Below, in pieces: positions 1-58,215 of a stretch of DNA of 64,000 nt (position 1 is the stretch's first letter; every line of letters begins with the position of its first letter). Position numbers and translations under genes: made by a program. Below the pieces are notes generated by a model, which saw only the letters and a list, made by a program, of their open reading frames with translations, had not been told where the DNA came from and did not search any database. Origin of the DNA: an uncultured Gemmatimonadota bacterium (GTDB taxonomy: Bacteria; Gemmatimonadota; Gemmatimonadetes; Palauibacterales; Palauibacteraceae); assembly GCA_964510615.1 (NCBI GenBank), contig CAZEBA010000010.1:15754-79753 (forward strand), given 5' to 3'.

Positions 1-171
1 CAGCTCTGGGACACGACGATGAATCCCGAAAAGCGCACGCTGCTCAGGGTCACGATCGACGAGGCGACCGAGGCCTCCCTGCTGTTCGAGAGGCTCATGG
101 GCGAGGATGTGGAGCCGCGGCGCGAGTTCATCGAGAACAACGCGCGCTTCGTGCGAAACCTCGACGTCTGA
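1..171 (+). CDS. gyrB: DNA gyrase subunit B, C-terminal fragment (5' end outside window); parE not excluded
   Basis: Frame 1 translates to ...[55 protein letters not shown], matching the conserved GyrB/ParE C-terminus; TGA at 169-171. Confidence 0.7.
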
Positions 172-250
172 GTCGGAAGGGCCGGGTCCGGGCCTCGCCC
201 TCACCCAGGGAGCGGAGCCCCGGAGATCGGCCCGCCTTTCCGGGAAGGAA

Positions 251-2374
251 ATGGAGACCAAGCGACCGACGGTACCTGCCGCCGAGGAGATCCTCGGCCT
301 CTATCATCCGGTGCTCGATCACGGCTTCGTGGCGCTGATCGACTACATGGGCTGCGACGACAGCATCGAGCGGGCGGCGCGGGTCAGCTACGGATATGGC
401 ACTCGAAAGCGAAGCCAGACGCGGGGACTGATCCGGTACCTTCGCCGGCACCTGCACACGACGCCGAGCGAGATGGTGGAGTTCAAGTTCCACTGCGCGA
501 TGCCGATCTTCGTGGCCCGCCAGTGGATCCGACACCGTACGGCCTGTCTGGCTGAGGGTACCGACGTCTATTTCGACCTGCCGGGCGGCATTCGACGTCG
601 TGGCAACCAGCTCTACAAGCTGAAGATCGAAGAGATTTGGCACCGGTTTCAGCCTACCCGGAATCGAACCCGACCCGACAAGCAGAAGAATCCCCACGTG
701 CGGCGTGATCGCATACGGGCCATGCGGGTGCGGCAGGTGGACGAGCAGACCCTGATGATTCGACATACCCGGATACGCGACGTGTTTCGTAACGGCCCGA
801 AACCTGTCTTTCGAATGCTGCTGGAGGACGGGAAAGGGATCGAGGCCACCGCCGATCACAGGTTCATGTTCTCGGACGGTTGGCGGACGCTGAGGGAAGC
901 CGTCGGCCTCCATGAGAGGGCGGGGAGGGCCGTCTGGCTTGCCGGTGACTACTACGTGCACGTCAACGGAACGACGGTCGAGCCGGCGATTCAGCACCGG
1001 CACAAGGAGTGGCTCGCACGGCGCTACCACGACGATGGCGTGACGATCCGCGAAATGGCCGCGGAGGCCGGAGTATCCTACCACACGATCCGGAAGTGGC
1101 TTCGGTTCCACGGGCTACAGCGGCATCACAGGTGGGATCGTGGCCACAAACCATGGAATAAAGGGAGGAAATACAGGCTCGGACCACGGGAGCTGAGCGA
1201 GTCGTGGATTGATGCCAACAGGAAAGCGCGTTCGGGCCCCGCTTCGAACTTCTGGCGAGGTGGAGTGAGTTCGGAGCGCGAGGCTATCGGCCGCTGGACG
1301 ACCCAAGTCTCTGGCAAGGTACACCGCCGGAACGGCTGGACCTGCCAACTGTGCTTTGCGCACGGTGGTGAGCTTCACTGCCACCACGTCATTCCGGTTT
1401 GGGCCGACCCGACGTTAGCTCGCGATCCGCGTAATCTCCGCACGCTCTGTGCTCGATGTCATCGGGAGATCTCGGGACGGGAGCTGGAGTACGCGGAGCG
1501 TCTCGGTGCTACGCCCGTCAAGGCTCTCTCGAGGCCCCGGGTGAGGCGGGCCTGGAACCAGCTAAGGTTCGCGAAGCTCGTGAGGATCGTCGGCTTCGAA
1601 TACGTGGGCGTGAAGGAGACTTACGACCTCGAGGTCGAAGGCCCTGATCACAACTTCATCGCGAACGGGATCGTGACCCACAACTCCGTGAACGAGTACA
1701 GCGGTCGCTACAGCCTGATGCCGCTGCTCTTCTATCGACCCGGGCAGATGCAGGTGGCAGCGCAGAGCGAGGCCAACCGCCAGGGTCGCGCGGCCGAGGG
1801 AGTGGACGACGAGATCTACCGGCTCGCTCTCGAGCGGTGGGAGGAGGCGCGGGCGGCGGCGGCCGATGCCTACGAGTGGCTGTTGGCGGAGGATGTGGCC
1901 CGCGAGCTGGCGCGCATCGATCTTCCGCTCTCCACCTACACGCAGTGGTACTGGAAGATCGACCTGCACAACCTCGTTCATTTCCTCACCCTCCGCGTCG
2001 ATCCGCACGCACAGTGGGAGATCCGGGAGTACGGCAAGGTCATGGCCGGCATGCTGAAACGGGTCGCGCCACTGAGCTACGAGGCATGGATCGACTATCA
2101 GGTGTGCGGCGGCCGCCTGAGCCATGCGGAGCTTGAGGCGCTGAGGCGCCTGCTCGAGGTCCGAGACGGCGGCCTGGCCGCGCGAGCCGATGCACCGCCG
2201 TTGGGACCGGAGGCGCTGACGGCGCTCGGGCTCTCCAAGCGCGAGATCCGGGAGCTGCTCGAGAAGCTGGACCCGGTCGAGCGACCGGACTTCGAGCTCG
2301 AGCTGAACGACTTCCGGACGGCGGAGGAATTCGAGGAGCGGCTCGCTCGCGCGGTCCCCAGCCAGTACGAGTAG
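251..2374 (+). CDS. thyX: Flavin-dependent thymidylate synthase ThyX, interrupted by an in-frame intein (extein = 251-544 + 1685-2374)
   Basis: ATG at 251 follows a GGAAGGAA RBS (the ORF is open from 107, but the ThyX-like sequence starts at METKRP). The ThyX RHR motif (QWIRHRTA) is cut after Ala and resumes ...[10 protein letters not shown], completing the RHRxxxxxxxS signature; the C-terminal region is ThyX-like. Confidence 0.85.
545..1684 (+). mobile_element. Class-1 intein (380 aa) with embedded HNH homing-endonuclease domain, inserted in thyX
   Basis: Block [13 protein letters not shown] (Cys1), block [11 protein letters not shown] (TxxH), blocks [22 protein letters not shown], then Ser+1. 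HNH motif: [25 protein letters not shown]...[10 protein letters not shown]. Confidence 0.8.
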
Positions 2375-2414
2375 AAGTTGGAATCAGGCCTCCGGCGCTG
2401 CCGGAGTCCTGCGA

Positions 2415-3245
2415 TCAGCGATAGCAGCCCGGTGCAAGCTGGCGTGGCGTGAGGGAGCAGGTGTAGAGGTTCACCAGGAAAGCGACGGGCGCGGTTCTCG
2501 GCTCCGCGGCCATGCGCGGCACGTAATACCGGACGAGCCAATCGATCACGGCGCGGTCGCGTAGCTCGCGCTGCGCCGCCACTCCGCTGACTCCCATGCT
2601 AAAGCTGATCCGGGCATAGAAGCGGGTGGATTCCAGGACGCGGCGCGTGTCGGGTGAGACTACCACCCGGGAATCGACCTGCTGCGGGAGTCGCCCCGGG
2701 GGAACGAGGTCCGGCAGGAAGTACGTTACCCAGCGACCGTCGTTCTCGCGGAAGACGTGCGGGTAGAACGTGATGCGCGGTGGCTCGAACGCGTTCAGGG
2801 CGGTGATCAGGGCCATCGCCGCGCCGGAGACGAAATCATCCGCCGGCACGTCTTCCGGATGGCTGGTGACCACGAAGGTCTCGCTCTCCGGGGATTCCTG
2901 GGTCGCCTCGTACGCGACCATGAAGCGCTGGTTGGTGAAATCCAGCGAACCGAAGTATACGCGCCAGAGTCCGTCATCTCGGCGGTCGGTGATGTACAGC
3001 GTGACGCGGCTCGGCTCCGGGCTTACCCGCTCCAGCGCCTGAAGAGCCTGCCGGAGGGCGAAGTTCTGCTCCGCGATGCGCAGCCCCTCGGCCGCCGGTC
3101 GCTGCACGGTGGGAGGGGCAGCGACGTCATGGACTTCCTGGCCGACGCCGTGAGACGCCAGGAAGAAGATCCCGGCGATCGCCGGCGCCAACGCGGCGCG
3201 GCCCGGCGGACCGGCCCCGCACCTGCTCGACGACTCCGCGTTCAT
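2415..3245 (-). CDS. Hypothetical secreted protein (N-terminal signal peptide)
   Basis: 276-aa ORF; N-terminal hydrophobic stretch AALAPAIAGIFFLASHG; sits downstream of gyrA on the same strand; no recognisable motif. Confidence 0.45.
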   Translation of the reverse strand: MNAESSSRCGAGPPGRAALAPAIAGIFFLASHGVGQEVHDVAAPPTVQRPAAEGLRIAEQNFALRQALQALERVSPEPSRVTLYITDRRDDGLWRVYFGSLDFTNQRFMVAYEATQESPESETFVVTSHPEDVPADDFVSGAAMALITALNAFEPPRITFYPHVFRENDGRWVTYFLPDLVPPGRLPQQVDSRVVVSPDTRRVLESTRFYARISFSMGVSGVAAQRELRDRAVIDWLVRYYVPRMAAEPRTAPVAFLVNLYTCSLTPRQLAPGCYR

Positions 3246-3314
3246 GAAGCGCCCGACCGCTGCAAAGCTCGCGCCCAGCCCCCCTTACCTGCCAATCTCG
3301 CACAACCCGAACCC

Positions 3315-3370
3315 GGAGAAAGAATAGGCGACGACCCGTTGTCGGACAACGTTCGTCGGGCCGGTCGTCC
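3315..3370 (-). terminator. Putative intrinsic terminator downstream of gyrA
   Basis: Inverted repeat GGCGACGACCCGTTGTCGGACAACG..CGTCGGGCCGGTCGTCC immediately after the gyrA stop. Read on the minus strand it is followed by a T-rich run (TATTCTTTCTCC). Confidence 0.45.
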
Positions 3371-3374
3371 GGTG

Positions 3375-5912
3375 TCACTTCTCGGCCGTGAGCTCCAGCT
3401 GGGCTTGCCTCGGCCGGTCGGCATCGGCCGGCTCGCGCGCAGGCTCCCCGTCCCCTTCCGCCGCAGCCATCGGCGGCTGCTTCTCCTGCACCGGCGTCAC
3501 CGCGCCCGCCGCGGATGATACGGCACGAACTTTCACGCCATCCGTCCGTCCAAGGACCGGCACGCTCGCGGCACGCCTGGACCGGGCCTTGAGGCCGTCG
3601 CCATCGGTGAATACGAGCTCACCGGAGTCGAGCTCCCAGGCCAGCCGGTCCCTTCCGTGCATCTCCACCAACGACACCAGCTCACCGGCCGTGTCGATGT
3701 CCGGAAGCACGGAGACACCCTTGCCGGCGCGGGACTGGAGGCGAAGCTCGGTGACCGGCAGCCGCTTGGCGCGCCCGAGGCGGGTGGCGAGGCAGTAGCT
3801 GGCGTCTCGCCGCCCCACCGTGGCCCCTACCACCTCGTCGCCGGCCGCCAGATCGATGGCGCGCACTCCACGCGCGTTGCGTCCCATCGGCCGCACCTCC
3901 TGCTCCGCGAAACGGATCGCCTGGCCCCGGCGGCTGGCGAGGACCAGCTCTGCCGATCCGTCGGTGACCAGAACGGCGACCACCCTGTCACCCTTCGCGA
4001 GGCCGGCACCGAGGATCCCTCCGGCACGCGCGTTGGAGTAGTCCGCCAGTCGGGTGCGCTTGACCTGTCCCGCCCGCGTCACCGTCACCAGGTACCCTCT
4101 GTCCCAGTCGTCGACCAGCGTCACGGCCACCAACCGATCGCCCTCGCCCAGGTCCGCGAAGTCGGTGATCGTCCGCCCTCGCGAGCTCCGCGTATCGAGC
4201 GGGAGATCGGACACACGTAGGGCATGAGCGGACCCGCCGGCGGTCACGAGCAGGAGATGGTCGTTGCCGCGGCAGAGAAACGCCCGACGGGCGAAGTCGC
4301 CGACGCGGTCCTCCAGCGCTTCCGCACCGGACAGCCCCGCCCCCGCGCGGACCGGGAGCGCCTTCACGTAGCCCAGCCGGCTGACCAGGACGAGAACGGC
4401 ACCCGCACCGCCGCCGGAGGGGAGGGGGAACGTCCCGCCGTCGAGAATCTCCGTGCGGCGCGTATCGCCATAGAGCATGGAGAGCTCCGACAGCTCGCCG
4501 CGCAGGTGGAGCTTCCGCGCCTCTTCCACCTCGACGAGCTCGCGCAGCTCCACGATCAGCCGGGCCAGGTCCTCCAGCTCCGCGCCGAGCTTCTTGTGCT
4601 CCAGGGCCGTCAGCCTCGCGAGCCGCATGGCCAGGATGGCCTCCGCCTGCGGTTCCGTGAGCCTGAGTTCCCTCTGCAGCTTGTTGGACGCCGAGGCGGC
4701 GTTGCGAGACCCGCGGATGATCTCGACGACGCGCTCGATCTCATCCAGGGCGCTGAGCAGTCCCCGCACTACGTGGGCGCGCTCCTCGGACCTCTTCAGC
4801 TGGAAAGCAGCCCGCCGGCGAATCACGTCGAGCCGGAACTCCACGAACGCCTGTAGCGCCTCCTTCAGGTTCATCTCGCACGGACGACCGTCTCGAAGCG
4901 CCAGCATGATGACGCCGAACGTCGTCCGTAGCTGGGTCTTCTTGAACAGGGTCTCGATCACCCTGCGCGGGTCAGCATCCCGCTTGAGCTCGATCACCAA
5001 GCGGACGCCGTCCCTGTCCGACTCGTCGCGGAGGTCGCTGATCGCGTCGGAGCGTCCCTGTCGGACCATCTTCGTGATCTGCTCGATGACCCGGGTCTTG
5101 TTCACCTGGTACGGCAGCTCCGTGACGACGAGCAGGCGCTTTCCGTATCCGCCCTCCTCCACGTGCATGCGGGCCCGCATCTCCACCAACCCCCGGCCCG
5201 TCTCGTATGCCTGGCGGATTGCGGCCCGACCCCAGATGTAGCCCCCTGTCGGGAAATCGGGGCCATGCAGATGATCCACCAGGTCCTCCGTCGCACACTC
5301 CGGATGCGCCACCAGGTGGTCCGTGGCCGCCAGCAGCTCACGCAGGTTGTGGGGCGGGATCTTGGTCGCCATGCCGACGGCGATCCCGTCCGAGCCGTTG
5401 AGCAGCAGGTGCGGCAACCTGGCCGGAAGGGTGTCGGGCTCCTCCAGGCGGCCGTCGAAGTTGGGTCGCCAGTTGGCGGTGTCGAGCTGGATCTCGGCGA
5501 GAAGCTCCAGCGCGATGCGGGCGAGCCGGACCTCCGTGTACCGGTAGGCGGCCGGGCTGTCGCCGTCGATCGATCCGAAGTTCCCCTGGCCGTCCAGGAG
5601 CGGATAGCGAAGGGAGAACTCCTGAACCATGCGCACGATCGTGTCGTAGACGGCGGAGTCGCCGTGCGGGTGGTACTTGCCGAGCACGTCGCCGACGACC
5701 GTGGCGCTCTTCTTGTACGGCTTGTCGGGTCGAAGTCCCAGCTCGTGCATCGCGTAGAGGATGCGCCGATGGACCGGCTTCAACCCGTCGCGGGCGTCGG
5801 GAAGGGCGCGCTGGACGATCACGCTCATCGAGTAGTCGATGAAGGAGTCCCTCATCTCCTGCTCGATGAGACGGGGGAGGATTCGCTCCTGCTGCAGGGA
5901 CGGCTTGACCAC
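3375..5912 (-). CDS. gyrA: DNA gyrase subunit A
   Basis: 845 aa; N-terminus [28 protein letters not shown]; active-site region [11 protein letters not shown]; C-terminal beta-pinwheel repeats and acidic tail. Confidence 0.9.
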
Positions 5913-6027
5913 GGTGCTCAGCTCGGCGTGGGGGTCACGGGTTCCTTTCGGTTGCTATTCGGTATAGCGGAAGATCCCGACGGGCGCAAATCTTCTACGA
6001 CCTCGACCCGTGACAAGGAGAAGGTCC

Positions 6028-7113
6028 GTGGCCGACAGCTACGATCTGCCGCTGGTGTCGTCGGTTCTGCATCCGACCGATTGCTCCGAGGCCAGCGCCA
6101 AGGCGTTCGCGCACGCCTTGGCCATCGCGCTGATTCGCAAGACGAAGCTCACGATTCTGCATGCCGGCGGCGAGAAGTCCGCCCGCTGGGAGGAGTTTCC
6201 CTCCGTGCGGGGGACGCTGGAACGGTGGGGGCTGCTGGAGGCCGGGAGCTCCCGCTCCGCCGTCTTCGATCAGCTTTCGGTGCGCGTCAAGAAGGTCGTG
6301 TCGCGCCACAAGGATCCTGTCGAAGCCTGTCTTGTCTACCTGGCCGACCACCCCGCCGATCTCATCGTCCTGGCCTCGCGCAGCCGGCAGGGCCCGGTGA
6401 GGTGGATCAAGGGATCGGTGGCCGAGGACGTTGCCCGGCACTCCGATGCGATGTCGCTCTTCGTGCCGTCCGATGGTCGAGGCTTCGTCTCCCCGGCCAG
6501 CGGCACGCTCACGCTCCAGCGCCTGCTGGTTCCGATCGCCCATGTACCGAGCGCTCAGCCCGCCATCCTGTTCGCCGCTCGCGTGGCCCGAGTCGTCGGA
6601 GGGGAGGTGAGCGTAACCCTGCTGCACGTGGGCGATCCCGAGGACGTTCCGGACGTGGAAATCCCGGACGATTCGGCCATCCGGTGGACCGTGGAGGTTC
6701 GCAGCGGCGATCCGCCGAGTCGGATCGTGGAGGAGGCGGACCGCATCTCCGCCAACCTCATCGTGATGACGACGGATGGGCGTGACGTGCTGATCGATGC
6801 CCTGCGCGGCAGCCATACGGAGCGCGTGATCCGCCGCGGCGTCTGTCCCGTGCTCGCCCTGCCTGTCAGCTGGAGCGACGAGAAGCTGGCCGGTCGAGCG
6901 ATCGACGACGTCGTGCTCGAGCAGGAGCAAAGGGACGCCAGGGCGCTGAAGCAGGCCTTCCGGGACGCCGCCCTCGACCTCCACCCGGATCGCGTCGGCG
7001 AGGTCGAGAGGGAATACCACACGGACCTCATGGCGAGGGCGAACGAGGCTCACCGGGAAGGGGACATCGCGAAGCTCGAGAAGCTTCGGAAACGGTCCCG
7101 ACGGTCGGAGTAG
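6028..7113 (+). CDS. Tandem universal stress protein (UspA-family) domains with a short C-terminal J-domain-like tail (HPD)
   Basis: Two Usp-type C-terminal signatures (LIVLASRSRQGPVRWIKGSVAEDVARHS; LIVMTTDGRDVLIDALRGSHTERVIRRGVCPVLAL). Likely GTG start at 6028 after AAGGAGAAGG. The overlapping minus-strand ORF 5995-7134 is judged a shadow ORF. Confidence 0.75.
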   Translation: MADSYDLPLVSSVLHPTDCSEASAKAFAHALAIALIRKTKLTILHAGGEKSARWEEFPSVRGTLERWGLLEAGSSRSAVFDQLSVRVKKVVSRHKDPVEACLVYLADHPADLIVLASRSRQGPVRWIKGSVAEDVARHSDAMSLFVPSDGRGFVSPASGTLTLQRLLVPIAHVPSAQPAILFAARVARVVGGEVSVTLLHVGDPEDVPDVEIPDDSAIRWTVEVRSGDPPSRIVEEADRISANLIVMTTDGRDVLIDALRGSHTERVIRRGVCPVLALPVSWSDEKLAGRAIDDVVLEQEQRDARALKQAFRDAALDLHPDRVGEVEREYHTDLMARANEAHREGDIAKLEKLRKRSRRSE

Positions 7114-26118: not shown

Positions 26119-26670
26119 ATGTCGGACGACGCGCAGCTTTCCGCGCCCCGCGAGGCTGTCTTGCCGGAGGGCGGGATGCGGATCGCGGCCGAGACCCTGG
26201 TGCTCGAGCGGCTCAGGGCCCTCCGGCGGGCGTTGGGTCGGAACGTCGGCCCGCGGGACGTCGTCGTCCGTCGGACGAATCCGGCGGCCCGCAAGCACCT
26301 GTTCGAGGAGGCGTGCGAGCTGTACTGGAACGAGTTGAGCTGGGAGGAGACGACCGACGAGGAGATGATCGGCGATCGTGAGCTCACCGAGATGGTCTTC
26401 CCCGGCCTGCTCGCCTTCATGAACGCGCTTCTGCCCAGCGGAGAGGGCGGCGAGCCGGACCGCAAACGGGAGCATCGCGACGTGGCGCACGACTTCCTGC
26501 TCTGGCTGGCCGCCCGCCTCGTCGAGCTGCGCAACGCGAGGGCGTCGGAGAACGGTCACCACTCGCGCATTCGCCGAGAGGTCCAGGTCACCGATGAGTT
26601 GATCGACCTGGTCGCCTACCGCCTCTACTCGCTGACCTCCGAAGAGATCGAGGATCTGCAGATCCGCTGA
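26119..26670 (+). CDS. Hypothetical protein
   Basis: ATG at 26119 after GGAGAGG; 183 aa; no recognisable motif. Confidence 0.4.
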   Translation: MSDDAQLSAPREAVLPEGGMRIAAETLVLERLRALRRALGRNVGPRDVVVRRTNPAARKHLFEEACELYWNELSWEETTDEEMIGDRELTEMVFPGLLAFMNALLPSGEGGEPDRKREHRDVAHDFLLWLAARLVELRNARASENGHHSRIRREVQVTDELIDLVAYRLYSLTSEEIEDLQIR

Positions 26671-26716
26671 TCCGTCGGGCACCGGTCCGGACACCACCAG
26701 AAAGAGCGCTCGAAAC

Positions 26717-27463
26717 GTGAAGTCGATCGTCTGCATCAAACGCGTCCCGGACTCGGAGACCCGGATTCGTATCGCCAGTGACCGAGGCAGCATCGATCCG
26801 GCCGGGGTCAAGTACGTCATGAACCCCTACGACGAGTTCGCCCTGGAGGAGGCACTGCGGCTCAAGGAGTCGGCGGGTGATGGGCGCGTGACCGTCCTCT
26901 CCGTGGGGCCCGAGGAGACGAAGGAGATCCTGAGGACGGCGCTCGCCATGGGAGCGGACGAGGCCGTGCTGCTCAAGTCGGCGGACACCGGCGACGGACT
27001 CTCGGTAGCCAGGGCCCTGGCAGCAGAGATCGCGGGCCGCGAGTACGACATCGTCATCTGTGGCAAGCAGGCGATCGACGTCGACGACATGCAGGTTCCC
27101 GCCATGCTGGCCGAGCTGCTCGGCGTGCCATGCGCCACCGTCGTCGTTCGGCTGGAGATCGATGAACGGCGGGCCGCGGCGCACCGCGAGGTAGAGGGCG
27201 GGCACGAGATCGTGGAGTTCGACCTGCCGGCCGTGGTGGCGGCGCAAAAGGGGCTGAACGAGCCGCGGTACCCCAGCCTGAAGGGCATCATGGCGGCGAA
27301 GAAGAAGCCGCTGGAGGAAAAGGAGATTCGGCTCGGCGAGGCGAAGGTTCGGATCGTGGCGCTGAGCGAGCCGCAGCAGAGGGCCGGCGGCGAAATCGTC
27401 GGGGAGGGGCCGGAGGCCGTGCCGGACCTCGTCCGTCGGCTGCGAGAGCGAGCCCTGCTCTGA
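26717..27463 (+). CDS. etfB: Electron transfer flavoprotein subunit beta
   Basis: MKSIVCIKRVPDSETRIRI...; typical EtfB sequence, GTG start. Confidence 0.85.
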   Translation: MKSIVCIKRVPDSETRIRIASDRGSIDPAGVKYVMNPYDEFALEEALRLKESAGDGRVTVLSVGPEETKEILRTALAMGADEAVLLKSADTGDGLSVARALAAEIAGREYDIVICGKQAIDVDDMQVPAMLAELLGVPCATVVVRLEIDERRAAAHREVEGGHEIVEFDLPAVVAAQKGLNEPRYPSLKGIMAAKKKPLEEKEIRLGEAKVRIVALSEPQQRAGGEIVGEGPEAVPDLVRRLRERALL

Positions 27464-27508
27464 ACGGACCGGCTCGACCCGACTCGGGCCGTGCCGAGGT
27501 GAGATAAG

Positions 27509-28492
27509 ATGCGAAACGTACTCGTCTTTGCAGAGACCCGGGACGGTGAGCTTCGTCCCGTGGCCCGCGAGGCCGTGACGGCGGGCCGGGAGCTCGCCGA
27601 TGCCCTTGGCGGCACGGTGGACGCCTTCCTGCTCGGTCCCCCCGGAACCGGCGAGAAGGCCGCGGACCTGGGCACGGTCGGTGCGGACCGCGTATTCGTG
27701 GCGGAGGACCCGGGTTTCGCGCTCTATGCCCCCGAGGCGACCGTTCGCATGTGCGAGGACCTGGCCGGCCGCGAGGAGTACGCGGCCATCGTCTTCCCCG
27801 CCTCCGCCCAGGGCAAGGACCTGGCGCCCCGGGTAGCCGCCCGGCTGGACCGCGGCCTGGCGACCGAGGTGATCTCGGTCGCCGTCGAGGGAGATCGTCC
27901 GGTCGCGACCCGGCCGATGTACGCCGGCAAGGCGATCGCCACCGTGACGTTCTCGGAGCTGCCGGCGCTGATCAGCGTACGCCCCAACGTCTTCCGGCCC
28001 GCGGAGCGGCACGCGGCGGGCACGGTCGAGCCTGTCGAGATCGCCGCCGAGCACGCGAGGCAGCGGGTGGTTCGAATGGAGACCGGCGACCGGACGGCCC
28101 TCGACGTTTCGGAGGCGAGCATCGTCGTGTCGGGTGGGCGCGGGATGAAGGATCCGGCGAACTGGGCGATCCTCCAGGAGCTGGTGGACGCGCTCGGGGA
28201 ACAGGCGACGCTCGGTGCGAGCCGGGCGGTCGTCGACGCTGGCTGGCGGCCTCATGCGGAGCAGGTGGGGCAGACCGGGAAGGTGGTCTCGCCGGACCTC
28301 TACTTCGCGGTCGGGATCAGCGGTGCCATCCAGCATCTCGCCGGCATGCGCACCGCCAAGACGATCGTGGCGATCAACCGCGATGCCGAGGCGCCGATCT
28401 TCAACGTCGCGGACTTCGGGCTCGTCGGCGATCTGTTCGACGTCGTGCCGGCCCTGAGCGCGGAGATTCGCCGGGTTCGCGACGAAGCGTGA
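27509..28492 (+). CDS. etfA: Electron transfer flavoprotein subunit alpha
   Basis: [15 protein letters not shown]...; C-terminal FAD-binding region …[37 protein letters not shown]. Confidence 0.85.
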
Positions 28493-28510
28493 CCGGCTGC
28501 CGGACATCTT

Positions 28511-29566
28511 ATGAGCCGGATGAGCCTGCGCGAGGTACTCGAGCCCCTGGCCCGCTGGAGTCGGGAGGGAAAGGCCGCAGGCCTGGCTACGCTGATCCGG
28601 GCCGAGCGCTCGGCTCCCCGGCGGCCGGGGGCCCGCTTCGCCGTGAGCGACGCCGGCGACCTGGCCGGTTCCGTCTCCTCCGGCTGCATCGAGGCTGATC
28701 TCCACGAGCATCTCCTGCAGATTCTGGCCGGAGGCGACGCCCGGCAGCTGAGCTACGGGATCACCGACGAGATGGCGGCCGAGGTCGGCCTGGCGTGCGG
28801 CGGCGAGATCGAGGTGTTCGCGGAGCGGTACGACCCGGACGACCCCGCTTGGACCGCGACGCGTCAGGCCGTGGAGGAAGGCCGGCCGGCGCTCCTGCTC
28901 ACGGGAGTTTCCGGCACCGTTCGCGGCCGGCGAATGCTGGCCCCCGAGGACGGGAAACCCATCGGTTCGCTCGGCTCTCCACGGATGGACGCGCGGCTGC
29001 TCGAGCGTCTGCGGCCGATCCTGGACACGGGCTCGAACGAGCTGGTGGAAGCGGGCCCGGAGCCGGAGGCCGGAGCGGTGTTTGCCGAGACCCTCCTTCC
29101 TCCGCCGCAGGTCGCGATCGTCGGGGCGACGCCGGTCGGCGCCGCGCTGTGCGAGCTGGCGGCTCTGCTCGGCTTCGAGGTCCACGTCGTCGACCCGCGC
29201 CCGGCTTTCCTGTCGCGGGAGCGGTTTCCGGCAGCCACCCGCCTGGTGGGCGAGTGGCCCGACGAAGGCCTCGCCGCGGTGGGCATCGATCGCCACTCTA
29301 GCGTCGTCGTGCTCGCCCACGACCGCAAGCTGGACGTTCCGGCTCTCTCCTCGGCGCTGCGCGCCGGCTGCCGCTACGTGGGCCAAATCGGGGGAGGGCG
29401 GACGCAGAGGCTGCGCCGCGAGGCGCTGGCCGAGCTGGGGCACGAGACCTCCGAGATCTCGGCCATCCGGGGCCCGGTCGGCCTCGACATCGGCTCCGAG
29501 ACGCCGGAAGAGATCGCCCTGTCGATTCTGGCCGAGATCGTCGCCGTCCGGCATGGGCGCGCATGA
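28511..29566 (+). CDS. xdhC: XdhC/CoxI-family molybdoenzyme maturation factor
   Basis: N-terminal XdhC_CoxI region (…[12 protein letters not shown]…) plus C-terminal Rossmann-like XdhC_C (…[28 protein letters not shown]…). Confidence 0.75.
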
Positions 29567-30188
29567 GCGGAAGGCCGGCCCGTTCGCCGGCCTCGTGCTC
29601 GCGGCCGGAGGCTCCCTCAGGTACGGACGCGAATCCAAGCTCCTCTTGCCGTTCGGAGACCTGACCGTGGTCGGCGCCTCGGTCAGGGCCGCCGTTACGG
29701 CAGGTCTGGAGCCCGTCGTGGTCGTGGTCGGCGATGACGCCGAGGAGGTACGGGCGGCCGTGAGTCGGGCCGTGGGCGAGCGGGCGGCTCGAGTGGTGGA
29801 GAACCGGCGCTGGCCCGAGGGGATCGGCACATCTCTGGCCGTCGGGGCCACGGAGCTGGCCGCCGATCCCGTTCCCGCAGCGATCGCGATCCTGCTCGCG
29901 GACGAGCCGGACGTGTCGCCCTCGATCATCCGCGCCGTAACGCGGGCGTGGGCGGCCGCCCGGCTCCCGGTGGCCGCGGCCGTCTATCGCGACCGTCCCG
30001 GACACCCCGTCGTAGCGGACCGCTCGCTCCTGCCCCTGCTCGAGCGCGCCGCCGGGGATTTCGGTTTGCGCACCGTCCTGGCGACGGAGAAGATCGCCAT
30101 CCACGCGGTCGCGATCGACCGTCCGGCGCCCACGGACATCGATGAGCCGGACGACTACGAGCGCGCCCTTCGCCGGTTCGGCGAGTGA
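29553..30188 (+). CDS. MobA-like NTP transferase domain protein (molybdenum cofactor cytidylyltransferase MocA-like)
   Basis: ATG at 29553 overlapping the xdhC end; GLVLAAGGSLRYG... nucleotidyltransferase N-terminus. Confidence 0.65.
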   Translation: MGAHERKAGPFAGLVLAAGGSLRYGRESKLLLPFGDLTVVGASVRAAVTAGLEPVVVVVGDDAEEVRAAVSRAVGERAARVVENRRWPEGIGTSLAVGATELAADPVPAAIAILLADEPDVSPSIIRAVTRAWAAARLPVAAAVYRDRPGHPVVADRSLLPLLERAAGDFGLRTVLATEKIAIHAVAIDRPAPTDIDEPDDYERALRRFGE

Positions 30189-31992: not shown

Positions 31993-33135
31993 CTACGCGT
32001 CCTCCGGGCACGAGGAGACCGACTTCCCCTGCTCATCGGTCGCGATGTCGCGACCCGACCAGATCGGCCAGCGATCCACCACACGATCCCCGTCGGTGAC
32101 CCAGTAACTGCCAAAATTCGCGACAGTTAAGCAGGAGTGGTTCGGCAAGACCCGCAGGCGCGTGCCCAAAGGGTATCGCCGGTCGACCATACCGTGCTCC
32201 TGCGAGAGGGCGGTGAGACGGGCCTCGGAAGCCAGACGGCCTTCCCGGTAGTTCTCGTAGATCCCGCCCATGGCTGGCGGGGCCGACCCGGGCCCCCGGT
32301 CGGCGGAAAGCGCCAGGGCTCCCGCATCGACCACACAGTGCGACGCCCCCGGCTGGCTGGAAACGACGCTGGTGAGAACCGTCGCGGCGCAGTCACGGTA
32401 GTCACAGGATCCGAGCCAGGCCTGCGTACGGTCATAGAGAGCGTAGTTTCCGGGGCGTGCCTCTGTAACGCCCGTCAGATTCCGTACTTGCGACATCGTC
32501 GGTGTCGAGCCGACGCTCACCCCCGGCACATCGACCCCGGCCGCCCGCAGCCGCTCGGCCAGGGCGACCATGAGCCGGCGTTCCTCCTCGCTGACGGCCC
32601 GAATCTCCTGCGGGGATGCGGCAGAGTAGGCGTGCCCGGAGTGGGACAGGATACCGGCAAACGTCAATCCTGGAACGGCTTGTATCGCTCGGATCACCTC
32701 TCCTGCCACCGGCCCGTTCGGATCCACACCGGCTCGATGATAGCCGCAGTCCACCTTCAGCCAGACGGGTGCTCGGATCCCGTGCCCTTCGAGCGTCCCG
32801 ACCGCCTCCGCCGAATCCACCACCACGCCGAGCCGGATCCGGTCGCAGATCGCCGCCAGCTGGCGCATCCGGCTCGGGATGATCGGAAACGCCCAGGTTT
32901 GGTCCGAGAAGCCCGCGTCCGCGAATCGCTCGGCCTCATGAAGGGTGGAGACCGTGATTCCGCGAGCTCCGAGCGCCCGCTGGCGCTCGGCGATCGGCGC
33001 GCACTTGTGGGTCTTGACGTGGGGACGGAGTGCGACCCCCAGCGAGCGCGCACGCGCCGCCATCCGGGAGAGGTTCGACTCCAGTACGGAGAGCTCCAGC
33101 AACAGGGCCGGGGTCGGAAGGTCCTCCAAGCGCAC
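31993..33135 (-). CDS. Fold-type III PLP enzyme, D-serine dehydratase-like / alanine-racemase-N-domain family
   Basis: PLP-lysine context LRPHVKTHKC; alanine racemase N-terminal TIM barrel plus C-terminal domain; 380 aa. Confidence 0.7.
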   Translation of the reverse strand: MRLEDLPTPALLLELSVLESNLSRMAARARSLGVALRPHVKTHKCAPIAERQRALGARGITVSTLHEAERFADAGFSDQTWAFPIIPSRMRQLAAICDRIRLGVVVDSAEAVGTLEGHGIRAPVWLKVDCGYHRAGVDPNGPVAGEVIRAIQAVPGLTFAGILSHSGHAYSAASPQEIRAVSEEERRLMVALAERLRAAGVDVPGVSVGSTPTMSQVRNLTGVTEARPGNYALYDRTQAWLGSCDYRDCAATVLTSVVSSQPGASHCVVDAGALALSADRGPGSAPPAMGGIYENYREGRLASEARLTALSQEHGMVDRRYPLGTRLRVLPNHSCLTVANFGSYWVTDGDRVVDRWPIWSGRDIATDEQGKSVSSCPEDA

Positions 33136-33289
33136 GTCATCCTCCGGATCGCCGTCTGCCGAGGTCCGACTGCTGAGAGCCGGATCCGCCGAGCAGCTTG
33201 CTCGAGGCCGGTGCGCACCGCAATCCGCCGGCCGGCATCCGCTGCGCCTCAGGGTAGCTGCGGGCGACGCTCCGCCGCATCGTCAGAGC

Positions 33290-35401
33290 ATGTCACGAGC
33301 ACCATCGGGCCGCAGGCCACCGGATCCCAGCAGGCCGTCCGATCGCACGAGCCCGTCCGATCGCAGGACCTGGCCGTCTCTGCCGGCGGTCTTCGGCCTG
33401 CTCGCCGGCGTGCTCCTGCTGACGTTCCTGCTTCCCCTGCTCGCCTTTCTTCCGGACGTGGACGCGAACGAACTGGTGCGGCAAGTGGAGAGCGCGGGGC
33501 TGGTTCGAGCCGTGTCGATTTCGGCCGTGAGCGCCTCCGTCGCCACCCTGTTCGCTGCGCTCGGCGGTGTGCCGCTGGGGTACCTTCTGGCCAGGGACAG
33601 GGTCCCGTACCCGGGGCTCGCCCGAACGCTCGTCCTGCTGCCGCTCGTGCTGCCTCCCGTGGCCGCCGGCGTGCTTCTTCTCAACGTGTATGGCCCGGGT
33701 GGATGGGTGGGCGGGTGGCTGGAAGCGGCGGGTTGGACGGTCGCGAACGCCCTGGGCGGCATCGTCATCGCCCAGGTGTTCATCATATCGCCGTTCGTCA
33801 TCCTGACGGCCGAGGCGGCGTTTCGAGGCGTGGATCCCCGGCTGGAGGCGGTGGCCGCCACTCTGGGCCGCCCTCCGGTCATCGTGTTCCGACGGGTCTC
33901 GCTGCCGCTGGCGCGCTACGGCCTGCTCGCCGGTCTGGCGCTGGCGTGGATGCGGGCGGTCGGCGAGTTCGGCGCCACCGTCGTCCTGGCGTACCATCCC
34001 AGGTCGCTCCCGGTCCACCTCTGGGTGGAGCTCACCGGACGGGGCCTACGAGCCGCGCTGCCGGTGGCGTTGGTAGCGCTGGCCCTCGCCGCCGGGATTC
34101 TGCTGCTGGCGCAGCGCTTCGCCTCACGGACCCGCCAGCCGGTGTCGGAAACCGGACTCCGCGGTCCGGCGCGCGAGGCGACCGATGAGCCGGATCTCGC
34201 CCTCGATGGCTCGGTATCGTCTCCGGCCGGGCCCGGCCCGGTGATCGAGGCGGATTTTCGCCTCGGCCTGGGCGGATTCCGGCTCGAGGTCCGCTTGGAG
34301 GCCCGCCGCGAGATCCTCTCCCTCTTCGGTCCCTCGGGCGCGGGCAAGAGCACTCTTCTGCGGGCGATCGCCGGGCTGGTGGATCCCGATGCAGGCCTGC
34401 TGCGCCTGGCCGGCGCTACCGTGTTCGGCGACGGAGTCCGCGTTCCGCCCGAGTCGCGGTCGGTGGGTCTCGTGCTCCAGGGGCCCAGTCTGTTTCCGCA
34501 CCTGACCGTCCGGGACAACGTGCGGTTCGCGGCCGATGGAGCCGAGGCGGAGGACCGCTTCCGTCGGCTGCTGGCGGTGACGCGGCTGCAGGGACTGGAG
34601 GGCCGATACCCGGCCGAGCTGTCCGGCGGACAGCAGCAACGCGTCGCTTTGGCCCGGGCCCTCATGCAGCAACCTCGCATCCTGCTGCTGGACGAGCCGT
34701 TCTCCTCCCTTGACACCAACATGCGGGAGCGGCTTCATCGGGACGTCAAGCGAATCCGGGCGACGTTCGGGCTCTGCGTGATCTACGTGACCCACGAGCT
34801 GCGGGACGCATGCGCGATGGGCGATCGCCTGGCGGTGATCGTGGACGGTCGCATCGAACAGGTCGGCGAGCCGCTGGCCGTGATCCGTCATCCGGCCACG
34901 TTCGACGTGGCTCGTTTCGTAGGGGTGAGAAACCTGTACCGGGGCATCGTGCGGCGCTCGGCAGGGAAGGAGTTGGAGATCGGCATCGGCGGCTTCACGC
35001 TGCAGGCGGCGCCGGTTCCCGGTGTCGCCGACGGGAGCTCGGTGTACGCCTGTGTTCGACCCGAGGACTTCGAGCTGACCCATGTCGGCTCGGAGCGAGG
35101 AGCGATCGGAGCCAACTCCGTTCCGGTGACGATTCTCGACCGACAGCTGCGCGGACCGACGGTGACCCTGGAGGCGGCCGTGCGGGGAGCAAATCCGGAA
35201 CTCCGGCTCGAGATCGAGATTCCGGTCCGGACGTACGAGACCCTCGGATTGGGGATCGGCGACGAGGCCGAGGTGACGGTGGCGCCGGATGCGATCCACT
35301 TGATCGCGGTCCAGCGCCCGCAACCTCCGCTGGCGAGCACCGAAGGGTGTGACGACGATGCGTCACGCGTCGTCTTACGAGCGGAACGGAGAGCCACATA
35401 G
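33290..35401 (+). CDS. Fused ABC transporter permease-ATPase (ModB/WtpB-like permease + ModC/WtpC-like ATPase)
   Basis: ATG at 33290. N-terminal 5-6 TM permease with EAA-like loop (…EAAFRGVDPRLEAVAATLG…); then Walker A GPSGAGKST, signature LSGGQQQRVALARAL, Walker B ILLLDEPFSSLD; C-terminal TOBE-like region. Confidence 0.75.
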   Translation: MSRAPSGRRPPDPSRPSDRTSPSDRRTWPSLPAVFGLLAGVLLLTFLLPLLAFLPDVDANELVRQVESAGLVRAVSISAVSASVATLFAALGGVPLGYLLARDRVPYPGLARTLVLLPLVLPPVAAGVLLLNVYGPGGWVGGWLEAAGWTVANALGGIVIAQVFIISPFVILTAEAAFRGVDPRLEAVAATLGRPPVIVFRRVSLPLARYGLLAGLALAWMRAVGEFGATVVLAYHPRSLPVHLWVELTGRGLRAALPVALVALALAAGILLLAQRFASRTRQPVSETGLRGPAREATDEPDLALDGSVSSPAGPGPVIEADFRLGLGGFRLEVRLEARREILSLFGPSGAGKSTLLRAIAGLVDPDAGLLRLAGATVFGDGVRVPPESRSVGLVLQGPSLFPHLTVRDNVRFAADGAEAEDRFRRLLAVTRLQGLEGRYPAELSGGQQQRVALARALMQQPRILLLDEPFSSLDTNMRERLHRDVKRIRATFGLCVIYVTHELRDACAMGDRLAVIVDGRIEQVGEPLAVIRHPATFDVARFVGVRNLYRGIVRRSAGKELEIGIGGFTLQAAPVPGVADGSSVYACVRPEDFELTHVGSERGAIGANSVPVTILDRQLRGPTVTLEAAVRGANPELRLEIEIPVRTYETLGLGIGDEAEVTVAPDAIHLIAVQRPQPPLASTEGCDDDASRVVLRAERRAT

Positions 35402-46267: not shown

Positions 46268-48187
46268 ATGGCGAAGTGGCGACTGCCTGAGTTGCTCAGC
46301 AGCCTCTCCGCCCGGGTCCCCTCATCCGAGGCGGCGGCGGGCAAGGACGAGCCGGAAGTTGCGGCGGCGGAGGAGTCGAGCCGTTTCGCCGAGCGACCGG
46401 TGGACCGGTCGGTGCTCTGGCTGCCCGGTGGTTGGGGGGAGCACGACAGCTCCCGACCGTACCCCTACGAGCTCTTCGTCGAGCAGGATCTGCTCCGGGC
46501 CGTCGCGGCTCATGCGCAGGAGGAGGTCGACGGGAGCTATGGCCTTCTGACCGGCCGCCTGCTCACCTGCCGGCGTACCCGAATCCCGTTCGTCCACGTC
46601 GAGGCTGCCCATCGCTCGGAAAACCCGCTTCCGACCGACGAAGACGTCGCGAGCTTTCGGGAGTTCTTTTGGTCGGTGCGCGAGAAGGCCGGTCGGCGCG
46701 GGCGAGTGCTGGTCGGCTGGTATCATACCCACTCCCTGCTTGGCCTCCAGCTCTCCGAGCGCGACCGGCAGCTCCACGTGACCCACTTCCACGACGACTG
46801 GTGCTGCGCGCTCGTCGTGGTGACCCGCCACGGAAGAGCCGAAGGCGGCTTCTTTCAACGTGACCGCGGCGACATCCTGTTTCGCCGATCCACTCGTCCG
46901 TTCCACGAGGTCGTCAACCAGAAGGTCCGGGCAGGCGGCGGCCCGTACGTGACGACCGTCTCGTGGGAGAATTACTGGACTCACGAGCCCGTACTGTTCG
47001 CGAGAAAGCCGGGTGAGCCGGAATCCCGCGGCGGCCGGTGGTACTGGCGCCGACGCGATCCGTCCAGCCGGACGACCACGCACCTGCCGGGGCTGGGTTC
47101 CGGGACCATCGCAAGCGAGAAACTGGACGGCCTTCGCGATCAACCTGCCCCACCCGACGAGGCCACGAGCCGGAAGCCGGAGAAGCCGAGCTACCAGCCG
47201 GCGCTGGGTCGTCCGCGGCGGGCCGAGGACGACGCCGCCTTACCGGAACAGGCCAGGCACCAGGGTCCGCCGTCGGCCGACGCGTGGGCCCAGTGGGAGC
47301 AGGGACGGGAAGTCCGCCGAGCTCGCACAGAGAAGCGACTGAAGCCGGACAGGCAGCAGGCGGCCGCCGACGCGACTCAGACTGAGGCCGATGCGGATCG
47401 GCGTGCGCGGGCGAGGCTGGCCGCGCGGGCGGCGGCGGAAGCGGCAGCTCGGGCGGCGGCGGAGGCGCTGGGCATCGAGAGCGAGACCGATGCGGTCACT
47501 GCGGAGGCCGTGTCGCGGGCAGAGAGGGAGGCGGCCGCCCTGGCATCGAGGCGGCGCCCTCCGCCCGAAGTCGAGCCCGCGCACGAGGTGTCGGAAGCCG
47601 TCGAGGCGGATGTTGCGGGCACGGCTGTCTCGGCGACCGAGGTGGACACGACCCGGGCGGCCGAGGTGGCGGCGGAAGTCGAGGTGGCGGAAGTCGAGGT
47701 GGCGGAAGTCGAGGTGGCGGATGGGTCCGAGGTGGCGGACGAGTCCGAGGCACCGACCGAGGTAGAGGCAGTCCCCGAAGCCGAAGGCGTGCCAGAGAGC
47801 CAGATCGCAGCTGCCGAGTCTCCGCCGGGCGAGACGGTTCGGAGGCCGTCCGGTGACCAGGAGACTCGCGCGGCGCAGCTCGAGCTGAAGGAGCCGACGG
47901 AGCCTACGGAGGTCGCCCGCGTGCCTGCCGAGCCGGACGGCGTTGCGGAGGCCGAGGTAGCCGAAGTCGAGTCTCGCGCCGAGCCGGCTCCGGCCGGGAA
48001 GCTCGCGATTCCGGGGCGCAAAGCAGACGTTGAAGCCGCCGACAAGCGGTCACCGAGCGAAGCCGACTTCGTGATGCCGCCGATGATCATTCCTGATCCT
48101 CCTTCGCGCGTGTCGTCACGGAAGTACGCGCTTTTGATCGGAATTGCGGTGCCGATTGCCGCCCTGCTGTGGTGGCTCTTGGTTTGA
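46268..48187 (+). CDS. JAMM/MPN+ metalloprotease-domain protein with long Ala/Glu-rich repetitive region and C-terminal TM anchor
   Basis: JAMM motif EVDGSYGLLTG...VGWYHTHSLLGLQLSERD (E...HxHx7SxxD). Tandem VAEVE repeats from a 15-bp DNA repeat near 47690-47740. C-terminal YALLIGIAVPIAALLWWLLV. Confidence 0.6.
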   Translation: MAKWRLPELLSSLSARVPSSEAAAGKDEPEVAAAEESSRFAERPVDRSVLWLPGGWGEHDSSRPYPYELFVEQDLLRAVAAHAQEEVDGSYGLLTGRLLTCRRTRIPFVHVEAAHRSENPLPTDEDVASFREFFWSVREKAGRRGRVLVGWYHTHSLLGLQLSERDRQLHVTHFHDDWCCALVVVTRHGRAEGGFFQRDRGDILFRRSTRPFHEVVNQKVRAGGGPYVTTVSWENYWTHEPVLFARKPGEPESRGGRWYWRRRDPSSRTTTHLPGLGSGTIASEKLDGLRDQPAPPDEATSRKPEKPSYQPALGRPRRAEDDAALPEQARHQGPPSADAWAQWEQGREVRRARTEKRLKPDRQQAAADATQTEADADRRARARLAARAAAEAAARAAAEALGIESETDAVTAEAVSRAEREAAALASRRRPPPEVEPAHEVSEAVEADVAGTAVSATEVDTTRAAEVAAEVEVAEVEVAEVEVADGSEVADESEAPTEVEAVPEAEGVPESQIAAAESPPGETVRRPSGDQETRAAQLELKEPTEPTEVARVPAEPDGVAEAEVAEVESRAEPAPAGKLAIPGRKADVEAADKRSPSEADFVMPPMIIPDPPSRVSSRKYALLIGIAVPIAALLWWLLV

Positions 48188-56803: not shown

Positions 56804-58215
56804 GCCGGATCGCCTCGGTACGGGTGGAGCGTTCCGGGGCCGGGGCACGGGATCTCATGGGGCCGCTGCTGCGGGGGAGCCCCCGTGTCATGCTCGTGGG
56901 ACCGGAGTCCGGTCGGGTCGATGCGCGCGGGTGGGAGCGTCTGGGCGGCGAGCCGGCGCTCGGCCGGGTTCTCATCGAGGCGCTCGAGGAAGCCGGGATG
57001 CGCGGCATCGGCGTCGGGATCGGGGATGTGGCGGTGGTGGCCGATGCCGCGGCCCGGCTGGCTGCTCCGGGTCCGATCATCGTTCCATCCGGCGGGGGGC
57101 GGGAGTTCCTCGCCCCGCTGCCCCTTGGGATCCTGCCGATCTCCGAGGAGCTGTGCGAGGAATTTCGAGCCCTCGGGTGGGTGCGGATCGGCCAGCTGGC
57201 CGAGCGGGAGCGGAGTGAGCTGGAAGCGCGCTTCGGTCCGGCCGGACTCGAGGCGCACCGGTGGGCGTGTGGGGAGGACGAGCGCGCCTTCCGTCCCCTC
57301 CCGCCGCCGGAGCGACCGGAGGTGTCGCTGGAGCTGGAAGGCGCGGTGACGGCCCTGGAGCCGTTGCTGTTCGCACTTCGCCATCTGCTGGCCAGGCTCT
57401 GCGCCGGCCTGACCGGAGGGTCGTGCGTCTCCGAGCTCCGACTTCGCCTGGAGCTGGATGGAGGTGGCCGTCGCGAGGCGACGGTCGTGCCGGCGCGGCC
57501 GACCCGTCGGGAGCCGTTGCTGTTCGATCTCTGCCGAGCGGCGCTGGAGCGCTCGGAGGAGGGGGGAAGGCTGGCAGCCCCGGTGGTCGGCCTCGCGCTG
57601 GAGCTCCGCGAGACCGCGCCCGCGGAGGCCCGGCAGGGAGACCTGTTCCGGCGTGACTGGCGGGTGGGGGGAGGATGGGACGACCCGCTCGGGGCGGCGA
57701 TCGCGCTCGCGCGACTTCAGGCACGGTTGGGGGAGAACGTGGTCGTCACGCCCGGCGTCCGCGCGGATCACCGACCCGAGAGCCGTAGCGCCTGGATCTC
57801 CGTGACGCCAGAGGTTCTCGGAGCCCGGAACGGCGCGTCCGGAGCCCGGGTCGGTCCGTCCGGAGCCCGGGTCGGTCCGTCCGGGGCGCATGCCGGCATG
57901 CCCGAAGCCGCCACGGCTGCCCTGCCCGAAGCCGCCACAGCCGGCCTGCCCGCCGTCCTCCGGCTGCTGCCCGAGCCCGAGCCCGTTCGCGTGCGGTCGG
58001 AGGCGGACCGGCCCATCGAGCTGTGGGACGACCGGGGCCGGCACGAGGTGGTCGCGGCCGAGGGACCGGAGCGGCTGTCGGGGGACTGGTGGAAGGATCC
58101 GTACCGGCGCGAGTACTTCCGCGTCTGCACCTCGGGGGGAGAGCTGCTCTGGCTCTTCCGCGAGTACCGCCGCAGCGGGGAGCTGCGATGGTGGCTGCAC
58201 GGATGGTGGGACTGA
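56800..58215 (+). CDS. imuB: ImuB (inactive Y-family polymerase-like protein); appears N-terminally short
   Basis: GTGA overlap with imuA. Y-family thumb/HhH region LPLGILPISEELCEEFRALGWVRIGQLAERERSELEARFGPAGLEAHRWACGED. The proline/alanine-rich C-terminal part contains 24-nt tandem repeats (ARVGPSG x2). Confidence 0.7.
   Translation: MSRIASVRVERSGAGARDLMGPLLRGSPRVMLVGPESGRVDARGWERLGGEPALGRVLIEALEEAGMRGIGVGIGDVAVVADAAARLAAPGPIIVPSGGGREFLAPLPLGILPISEELCEEFRALGWVRIGQLAERERSELEARFGPAGLEAHRWACGEDERAFRPLPPPERPEVSLELEGAVTALEPLLFALRHLLARLCAGLTGGSCVSELRLRLELDGGGRREATVVPARPTRREPLLFDLCRAALERSEEGGRLAAPVVGLALELRETAPAEARQGDLFRRDWRVGGGWDDPLGAAIALARLQARLGENVVVTPGVRADHRPESRSAWISVTPEVLGARNGASGARVGPSGARVGPSGAHAGMPEAATAALPEAATAGLPAVLRLLPEPEPVRVRSEADRPIELWDDRGRHEVVAAEGPERLSGDWWKDPYRREYFRVCTSGGELLWLFREYRRSGELRWWLHGWWD

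Follow-up and report, generated by a model that had tools for sequence, protein, structure and literature searches.

Why should thyX, the gene for the flavin-dependent thymidylate synthase ThyX, carry 380 additional in-frame codons inside the loop that binds deoxyuridine monophosphate (dUMP), and what would such an insert do? The question is raised by a 64,000-nucleotide stretch of DNA, hereafter called the window, from an uncultured Gemmatimonadota bacterium of the Palauibacteraceae (GenBank assembly GCA_964510615.1, contig CAZEBA010000010.1, positions 15,754 to 79,753 of the forward strand), in which a preliminary description made from the letters alone had recognized an intein with an HNH-type endonuclease. 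It is likely, as judged from sequence comparison and structure modelling, that the insert is a full-length class 1 intein of the ThyX-a type, which would splice to restore ThyX and home by means of its HNH nuclease. Competence in splicing is predicted with high confidence; that the HNH nuclease is still active is probable, at a lower level of confidence.

An in-frame insertion in the dUMP-binding loop of ThyX

The thyX gene occupies positions 251-2374 of the forward strand, within a long open reading frame (ORF) at 107-2374. ATG 251, which opens the protein with METKRPT, is most likely the start codon rather than the codon at 107, because the homologues P0007, P0033 and P0122 begin with the same seven residues. 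Counted from this start the precursor has 707 residues, of which 99-478 form the intein; the residue numbers 147-526 given in the preliminary description were counted from the ORF start at 107 and have to be replaced. Its nucleotide coordinates are exact to the base: the N-extein (251-544, 98 codons) is followed by an insert of 1140 nucleotides (545-1684, 380 codons), in frame and stop-free, which opens with the TGT of Cys1 (545-547) and closes with CAC AAC for His-Asn380 (1679-1684), and the C-extein (1685-2374) starts with the TCC codon of the +1 Ser (1685-1687) and ends with the stop codon at 2372-2374. The precursor has a calculated mass of 82.3 kDa, spliced ThyX one of 37.7 kDa and the intein one of 44.6 kDa, the latter two being somewhat larger than the ~36 and ~42 kDa expected earlier.

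The identity of the host protein is clear from profile searches. The match to the Pfam family Thy1 (1.3e-47) falls in two stretches flanking the insert, the match to the NCBIfam model TIGR02170 (thyX; 162.6 bits against a cut-off of 87.9) is split around it in the same way, and the spliced product carries the RHRX7S-x-R-Y signature of the flavin-dependent thymidylate synthase ThyX. Removal of the insert leaves a ThyX of 327 residues, which aligns to the intein-free Thermus ThyX 6j61 (E 3.7e-69) without a gap at the junction and to the Thermotoga maritima ThyX 1kq4 without a gap over RHRTASVNE, so the seamless join after RHRTA that had been predicted is borne out. The insertion point, RHRTA/S (the slash marks the junction here and below), lies two residues past RHR and inside the RHRX7S signature, as had been claimed; the further statement that the RHR motif itself is split does not hold, the triplet being unbroken. 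From the alignment offset, and with the 1kq4 chain presumably carrying a 12-residue tag, the intein would follow the equivalent of T. maritima A82 and precede that of S83, with two residues separating it from R78-H79-R80 ahead of it and five from S88-G-R90 beyond it. The RHR and SxRY residues of ThyX make up the dUMP site, and the insert parts R94 and R96 from the S-x-R-Y half of the loop. The unspliced precursor should be inactive, because 380 residues interrupt the dUMP-binding loop.

A natural empty site and the allele states of close relatives

The closest ThyX relative lacks the intein. This protein (P0121, 321 residues) is 97% identical to spliced ThyX by BLASTP and 98% in a global alignment, and it is encoded on a metagenome scaffold (L082, ENA ERZ28654224) whose genes follow the order seen in the window: gyrB, thyX, a minus-strand ORF of 276 residues and gyrA. 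BLASTN aligns window positions 1-543 to this scaffold at 97.1% identity, the N-extein being 97% identical up to base 543, and the alignment resumes exactly at the first base of the C-extein, covering 1685-5424 at 96.4%. The two blocks are one base apart in L082, the base between them being the mismatched last base of an Ala codon; the intein thus accounts for an exact presence/absence difference of 1140 bp between two genomes that are ~3.5% apart. The empty site in L082 reads CGACACCGCACGGCG/TCGGTCAACGAGTAC around 6294/6295, and the surrounding region 6250-6340 holds it as ATCCGACACCGCACGGCG/TCGGTCAACGAGTACAGCGGC. As a separate observation, the L082 thyX (6001-6966) has an 18-bp in-frame deletion in the ThyX C-terminal extension relative to the window, the L082 sequence at this place being SKREKLDP.

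When relatives whose exteins are at least 81% identical are compared, three allele states appear. The window has the full-length intein, mini versions of 164-221 residues are present in P0033 and P0127-P0129, and no insert is present in P0121, P0122 or P0123-P0126. The mini-intein of P0033, with 221 residues, is 75% identical to the window intein, while in its exteins P0033 matches the empty P0122 at 96% identity. Such sporadic presence and absence among close relatives is as expected of a mobile element, and the full, mini and empty stages of the homing cycle coexist in this narrow clade. The preliminary description had named an equivalent insertion in intein-free homologues as the result that would speak against an intein; the closest ThyX relatives (exteins 98%, 87% and 81-84% identical) are without any insertion.

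The splicing domain

The two ends of the insert form a split Hint splicing domain. The Pfam family Intein_splicing matches with 41.7 bits (cut-off 35.8) and the NCBIfam model TIGR01443 (intein_Cterm) with 29.9 bits (cut-off 15.6), and intein_Nterm scores at its cut-off of 24.5; such agreement goes well beyond chance. In a search of PDB sequences the best match was the Ssp DnaB intein 1mi8 (E 2.9e-12), to which residues 61-119 of the intein align. An AlphaFold2 model, built like the conservation figures below from 56 aligned relatives, has a mean predicted local distance difference test (pLDDT) score of 85 and shows a split Hint fold that encloses a three-helix helix-turn-helix (HTH) unit and an HNH module. 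When this model was compared with the PDB by Foldseek, DnaB, RecA and DnaE inteins came out on top, with a probability of 1.00 and template modelling (TM) scores up to 0.85 relative to the target.

The Hint N-half (545-979, residues 1-145) consists of beta strands, mostly with pLDDT above 90, and contains block A with Cys1 and block B with T102-A-D-H105 (848-859), while the Hint C-half (1556-1684, residues 338-380; pLDDT 93-98) contains block F and block G (NGIVTHN); pLDDT exceeds 90 for most of residues 31-140 and 341-380. Of the residues required for class 1 splicing, H105 is invariant and T102, D361, H369, H379, N380 and the +1 Ser are at least 90% conserved in the 56 relatives, and a Cys1 followed by L and A, T or S stands at the junction in every examined relative that spans it. 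The set of class 1 residues, which had been read off the sequence earlier, is thus present and conserved throughout or nearly so, and the motifs CLAEGT, ATADHRF and GIVTHN and the HNH string (CQLC...HCHH...N...CARCH) were all found as quoted.

The N-half also contains a basic insertion at 581-724 (residues 13-60), between block A and the remainder of the Hint N-lobe. It comprises ~48 residues, 15 of them Lys or Arg, has an isoelectric point (pI) of 11.9 and amounts to ~30 residues more than in the DnaB mini-intein (residue 61 of the query corresponds to residue 31 of the chain). It is modelled as short helices and a strand with pLDDT 87-96, lower (67) for residues 11-20, and it is retained by the HNH-less mini versions; it might conceivably contact DNA.

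Three other kinds of Hint element were considered and rejected. A class 3 intein does not agree with the presence of Cys1, with D361 instead of Cys at block F position 4 or with F107 instead of Trp at block B position 12 (in our own block numbering). A LAGLIDADG-type intein is contradicted by the region between the splicing halves, which is HTH plus HNH with no such family at E ≤ 1. Bacterial intein-like (BIL) domains are Hint domains of variable, non-conserved proteins, typically without the pair of a C-terminal Asn and a +1 nucleophile; the present insert has Asn380 and Ser+1 and interrupts the best-conserved motif of an enzyme of essential type.

The HTH and HNH modules

Between the Hint halves lie an HTH-like module, a basic linker and the HNH module, all in the same frame and on the forward strand. 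The HTH-like module (989-1114, residues 149-190) is a three-helix unit in the AlphaFold2 model (helices 154-163, 168-175 and 179-188), in agreement with the HTH-like stretch adjacent to the nuclease that had been noted before; the corresponding Pfam matches are below their cut-offs. The linker (1115-1276, residues 191-244) has a pI of 11.5 and is poorly modelled (pLDDT 43-75), and its motifs PWNKG and SNFWxGG are kept in the family consensus. A NUMOD-type DNA-binding module, as in phage nucleases, was considered for this PWNKG/SNFW linker but is not claimed, no Pfam match to one being found at E ≤ 1.

The HNH module (1277-1504, residues 245-320) has its Pfam HNH core at residues 267-309 (1343-1471), which matches PF01844 with 31.6 bits against a cut-off of 21.4. 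C267, C270, H280, H281, N297, C302, C305 and H306 are all present, each of them kept in 38-40 of 40 HNH-bearing relatives, and the model places a beta-beta-alpha arrangement at 277-309 (strands 277-281 and 298-302, helix 303-309), in keeping with a beta-beta-alpha-metal core that has His...Asn...His and a Cys4 zinc site. The profile search suggested earlier therefore finds both Intein_splicing and HNH above the Pfam cut-offs, and the assignment of the endonuclease to the HNH rather than the LAGLIDADG type is upheld, LAGLIDADG families being absent from the Pfam and NCBIfam matches at E ≤ 1. No solved HNH-intein structure was present among the PDB sequence matches or the top 50 Foldseek matches.

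A same-site intein family across phyla

A search with the intein only retrieved 483 proteins at E ≤ 1e-3. The best 120 of these 483, together with 36 sequences that were read, are all ThyX, and the insertion is at RHRxx/C...HN/S(V or I)NE in every read sequence that spans the junction. Pfam HNH is retained by 41 and lost by 79 of the best 120 of 483; in the HNH-less relatives the nuclease region is internally deleted, which leaves inteins of ~165-265 residues. Just such a series of decay is what the homing cycle would lead one to expect.

In species-representative genomes, same-site relatives reach 67% identity in Gemmatimonadota/Longimicrobiales, and the same site was confirmed in Calditrichaceae, Krumholzibacteriota, Planctomycetota, Elusimicrobiota and Akkermansiaceae; matches in Actinomycetota cover the C-terminal part only, yet end in ...HN/SFNE. 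In the actinomycetotal protein P0088 the site is RHRVG/S. Thermoplasmata archaea (L020-L024, L027 and L028; P0006) have same-site relatives of ~52% identity, enlarged to ~465 residues; the enlargement resembles a second HTH-containing repeat. The presence of these archaeal relatives implies transfer between Bacteria and Archaea. Bacterial and archaeal same-site inteins together are 42-67% identical to the window intein. Two viral contigs from IMG/VR (L084 and L085, 204 and 360 kb) have an HNH version at the same site, with the junctions RHRTF/CLSGD...MIVHN/SINEYSARYS and 38% identity to the window intein, and contigs of such jumbo-phage size are possible vectors between phyla.

More distant relatives (30-45% identity) occur at two other points of the ThyX motif, in divergent ThyX types (L026, L038, L076 and L080 from cyanobacteria; L034, L037 and L073; and the viral L086, L087, L090, L092 and L094). 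The cyanobacterial position is directly ahead of the Ser in SxRY (THRVGVSFDVQ/.../SFRY), and the third position is RHRAGFGY/.../SQLSQRY. In viral contigs whose ThyX is of the cyanobacterial type, relatives occur at the 'a' site as well as at the SxRY site. This distribution suggests that one intein lineage has moved between neighbouring ThyX sites.

Comparison with known inteins

By its position two to three residues after RHR and before the Ser of S(V, I, F or Y)NE, the window intein appears to belong to the ThyX-a (TdS-a) allele group, the 'a' site being understood as in the text of Kelley et al. 2016 (PMC5050341). That paper describes TdS inteins at insertion site 'a' in the mycobacteriophages Gizmo and ZygoTaiga and in Streptomyces, and argues for horizontal transfer. 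Gp97 of Gizmo, a cluster C1 mycobacteriophage, which is annotated in GenBank as 'ThyX-like, putative intein', has the homologous site RHRSGF/CVAGD...WVVHN/SYNEESGRY, compared with RHRTA/C...VTHN/SVNEYSGRY in the window, and resembles the window intein in being class 1, with Cys1, a terminal HN, Ser+1 and an in-frame HNH. The Gizmo and Cane17 inteins show 40% identity to it over residues 245-380 (E 2e-12). In contrast, tblastn detects similarity of the Gizmo intein only in the HNH and C-terminal splicing parts; the phage intein is shorter and has no counterpart to the HTH-plus-linker region, and the hosts differ, being a Gemmatimonadota chromosome of Gram-negative type here and actinobacteria and their phages for Gizmo, ZygoTaiga and Streptomyces.

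Inteins that carry an HNH in frame have been described by Dalgaard et al. 1997, as cited in PMC5050341, and a 2025 survey of actinobacteriophages (bioRxiv 10.1101/2025.01.02.630785) counts the in-frame HNH as one of the non-canonical intein architectures and includes thymidylate synthase in the list of hosts. They share with the window intein the succession of Hint N-half, HNH and Hint C-half in one frame; those reports treat the architecture as rare and focus on phages, whereas the window intein lies on a chromosome, and its large family extends over many bacterial phyla as well as Thermoplasmata archaea. It is a further case of a reported type and not new in kind, because architecture, host protein and site are already on record.

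Two further comparisons bear on splicing. In E. coli, cis-splicing of the Trichodesmium erythraeum ThyX intein (Ter) in mini-intein form reaches ~100% (PMC3620165), and ThyX inteins can therefore be efficient splicers; the cyanobacterial ThyX inteins retrieved here are 30-40% identical to the window intein and lie six residues further on (THRVGVSFDVQ/C...HN/SFRY). The Ssp and Npu DnaB mini-inteins (1mi8 and 4o1r) are the best solved matches of the splicing domain (TM 0.82-0.85 relative to the target) but differ from the window intein in having another host protein, no endonuclease and no basic insertion of ~30-48 residues after block A.

Proposed splicing and homing, and competing explanations

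We propose that thyX would be translated as an 82-kDa precursor with its dUMP-binding loop split by 380 residues. The Hint halves would associate, Cys1 would perform an N-S acyl shift and Ser+1 would attack the resulting thioester; Asn380, aided by His379, would then cyclize and free the intein, and an O-N shift would restore the peptide bond, to give a 37.7-kDa ThyX and a free 44.6-kDa intein. The latter would act as a selfish homing element, in which the HTH module and the basic segments would position the HNH nuclease; this would nick or cut an intein-free thyX near the insertion point, and repair off the intein-bearing allele would copy the 1140 bp in.

Several points weigh against this scheme. 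Splicing itself, HNH activity and the position of the cut are inferred for this copy, and a biochemical cleavage assay of an HNH-type intein was not found in the searchable literature, the assays in PMC5050341 concerning LAGLIDADG TerL inteins. The many HTH families of Pfam (among them MerR_1, HTH_28 and HTH_23) match only at E ~1e-3, all short of significance by their own thresholds. No recent donor emerges, the nearest full-length relative of the intein being 63-67% identical and the mini version 75%. Finally, the surroundings of the junction do not record a direction of change. Window and L082 differ there at eight positions in 49 bp, all synonymous, a count reached by just 0.8% of 50-bp windows over the 6.7 kb compared; when polarized with the outgroup L083, three of the differences are derived in the window, four in L082 and one is unclear. 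The polarity is mixed, and neither a co-conversion tract nor a choice between gain and loss is claimed; the pattern is compatible with a gain of the intein here, with its loss in L082 and with an empty site under selection for resistance. The sole other divergence from L082 of at least seven differences per 50 bp in the 6.7 kb, reaching up to 13, is at window ~6265-6340 (5125-5200 of the spliced alignment), past gyrA, where the L082 alignment also has indels.

The strongest alternative, which we regard as possible but clearly less probable than an intein that both splices and homes, is that splicing has been kept, as ThyX function requires, while the HNH no longer drives homing, so that the intein would be in early decay and vertically inherited, and recombination with an allele free of the intein would have removed it from L082. 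The loss of HNH from 79 of the best 120 of 483 relatives, the mixed polarity at the junction and the lack of a known near-identical donor copy are all compatible with this, and the 221-residue mini-intein of the sister lineage P0033 indicates that the intein lineage may be old in the clade. On the other hand, all eight catalytic or zinc-binding residues of the HNH are intact, the HTH and HNH modules fold confidently in the model, and the 380 codons are free of stops and frameshifts. The six closest extein relatives besides P0033 are all empty, so that under a single vertical origin the intein would have had to be lost precisely several times over, each time independently. Base composition bears on this as well: GC content at third codon positions (GC3) is 74.7% in the intein and 69% in its HNH part, whereas the exteins have 85-87% and another eight genes of the window 80-87.5%, which fits foreign DNA that has not yet drifted to host composition. 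An unannotated 1113-aa ORF of the window, with a GC3 of 75.6%, is near the intein value.

That the insert is a non-splicing remnant or a permanently inserted domain, with thyX a pseudogene or the gene of a two-domain protein, is very improbable. Splicing of this copy does rest on sequence inference, but Cys1, T102, H105, D361, H369, H379, N380 and Ser+1 are all present and conserved, an unspliced protein with R94 and R96 cut off from S-x-R-Y should be inactive, and the exteins are strongly conserved, being 98% identical in amino acids to those of L082, with junction differences that are all synonymous. Least probable of all is an assembly artefact in which reads of another organism's intein-bearing thyX were joined in: the window is most likely metagenome-assembled, its exact precursor protein (P0240) is on record once, from one NCBI contig of 83.7 kb, the GC3 of the insert differs from that of its flanks and the same species also has an allele free of the intein, but the junctions are at codon boundaries, in frame and at the canonical site, and on either side of them the exteins match L082 at 96-97% identity as far as the junction itself, so that a chimera would need two precise switches in conserved sequence, and intein-bearing relatives are found on long contigs or chromosomes of independent assemblies.

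Genes surrounding thyX

Upstream of thyX, the window opens with the 3' end of gyrB (1-171, forward strand), whose frame stops at 171; in the syntenic scaffolds L082 and L083 the gene immediately upstream of thyX encodes a complete GyrB (Pfam DNA_gyraseB_C). The 276-aa ORF between thyX and gyrA (2415-3245, minus strand) has no Pfam match at E ≤ 1e-5, and an ORF is called in the same place in L082 (276 residues) and L083 (265 residues). Three other long ORFs are without a Pfam family at this threshold, namely the one of 1113 residues at 26588-29929 (minus strand), one of 639 residues at 46268-48187 (plus strand) and one of 683 residues at 32137-34188 (plus strand); the last is overlapped by an ABC-transporter ORF and could be spurious. 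A six-frame search of the 64-kb window with a hidden Markov model of the family found no further inteins of this kind, and gyrA (3375-5912, minus strand) and dnaE (58023-61667, plus strand), which are common intein hosts in other organisms, are intein-free here.

Possible implications for ThyX regulation and intein homing

Two further-reaching interpretations are speculative, and we consider them improbable. Splicing could serve as a conditional post-translational switch on the supply of thymidine monophosphate (dTMP), for instance by redox control through Cys1, a reading prompted by the position of the intein in the dUMP-binding loop, where ThyX would be inactive until spliced; if true, it could explain why nuclease-less but splicing-competent minis persist at this site across many phyla. 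More modestly, the HNH intein could be an active homing element spreading in a wild Gemmatimonadota population, which, if true, would make it a tractable system for HNH-intein homing, with L082 as the natural target.

As they stand, the window and L082 form a matched natural pair of an apparently intact HNH intein and its empty target site, and this pair is suited to testing whether and where an HNH-type intein nuclease cuts its homing site. The family also has a practical bearing on annotation, since hundreds of database entries of 500-660 residues named just 'FAD-dependent thymidylate synthase' harbour this intein. With full, nuclease-deleted and empty alleles, and a range that takes in bacteria, archaea and large phages, it offers a good data set for the cycle of invasion, decay and loss and for transfer across domains.

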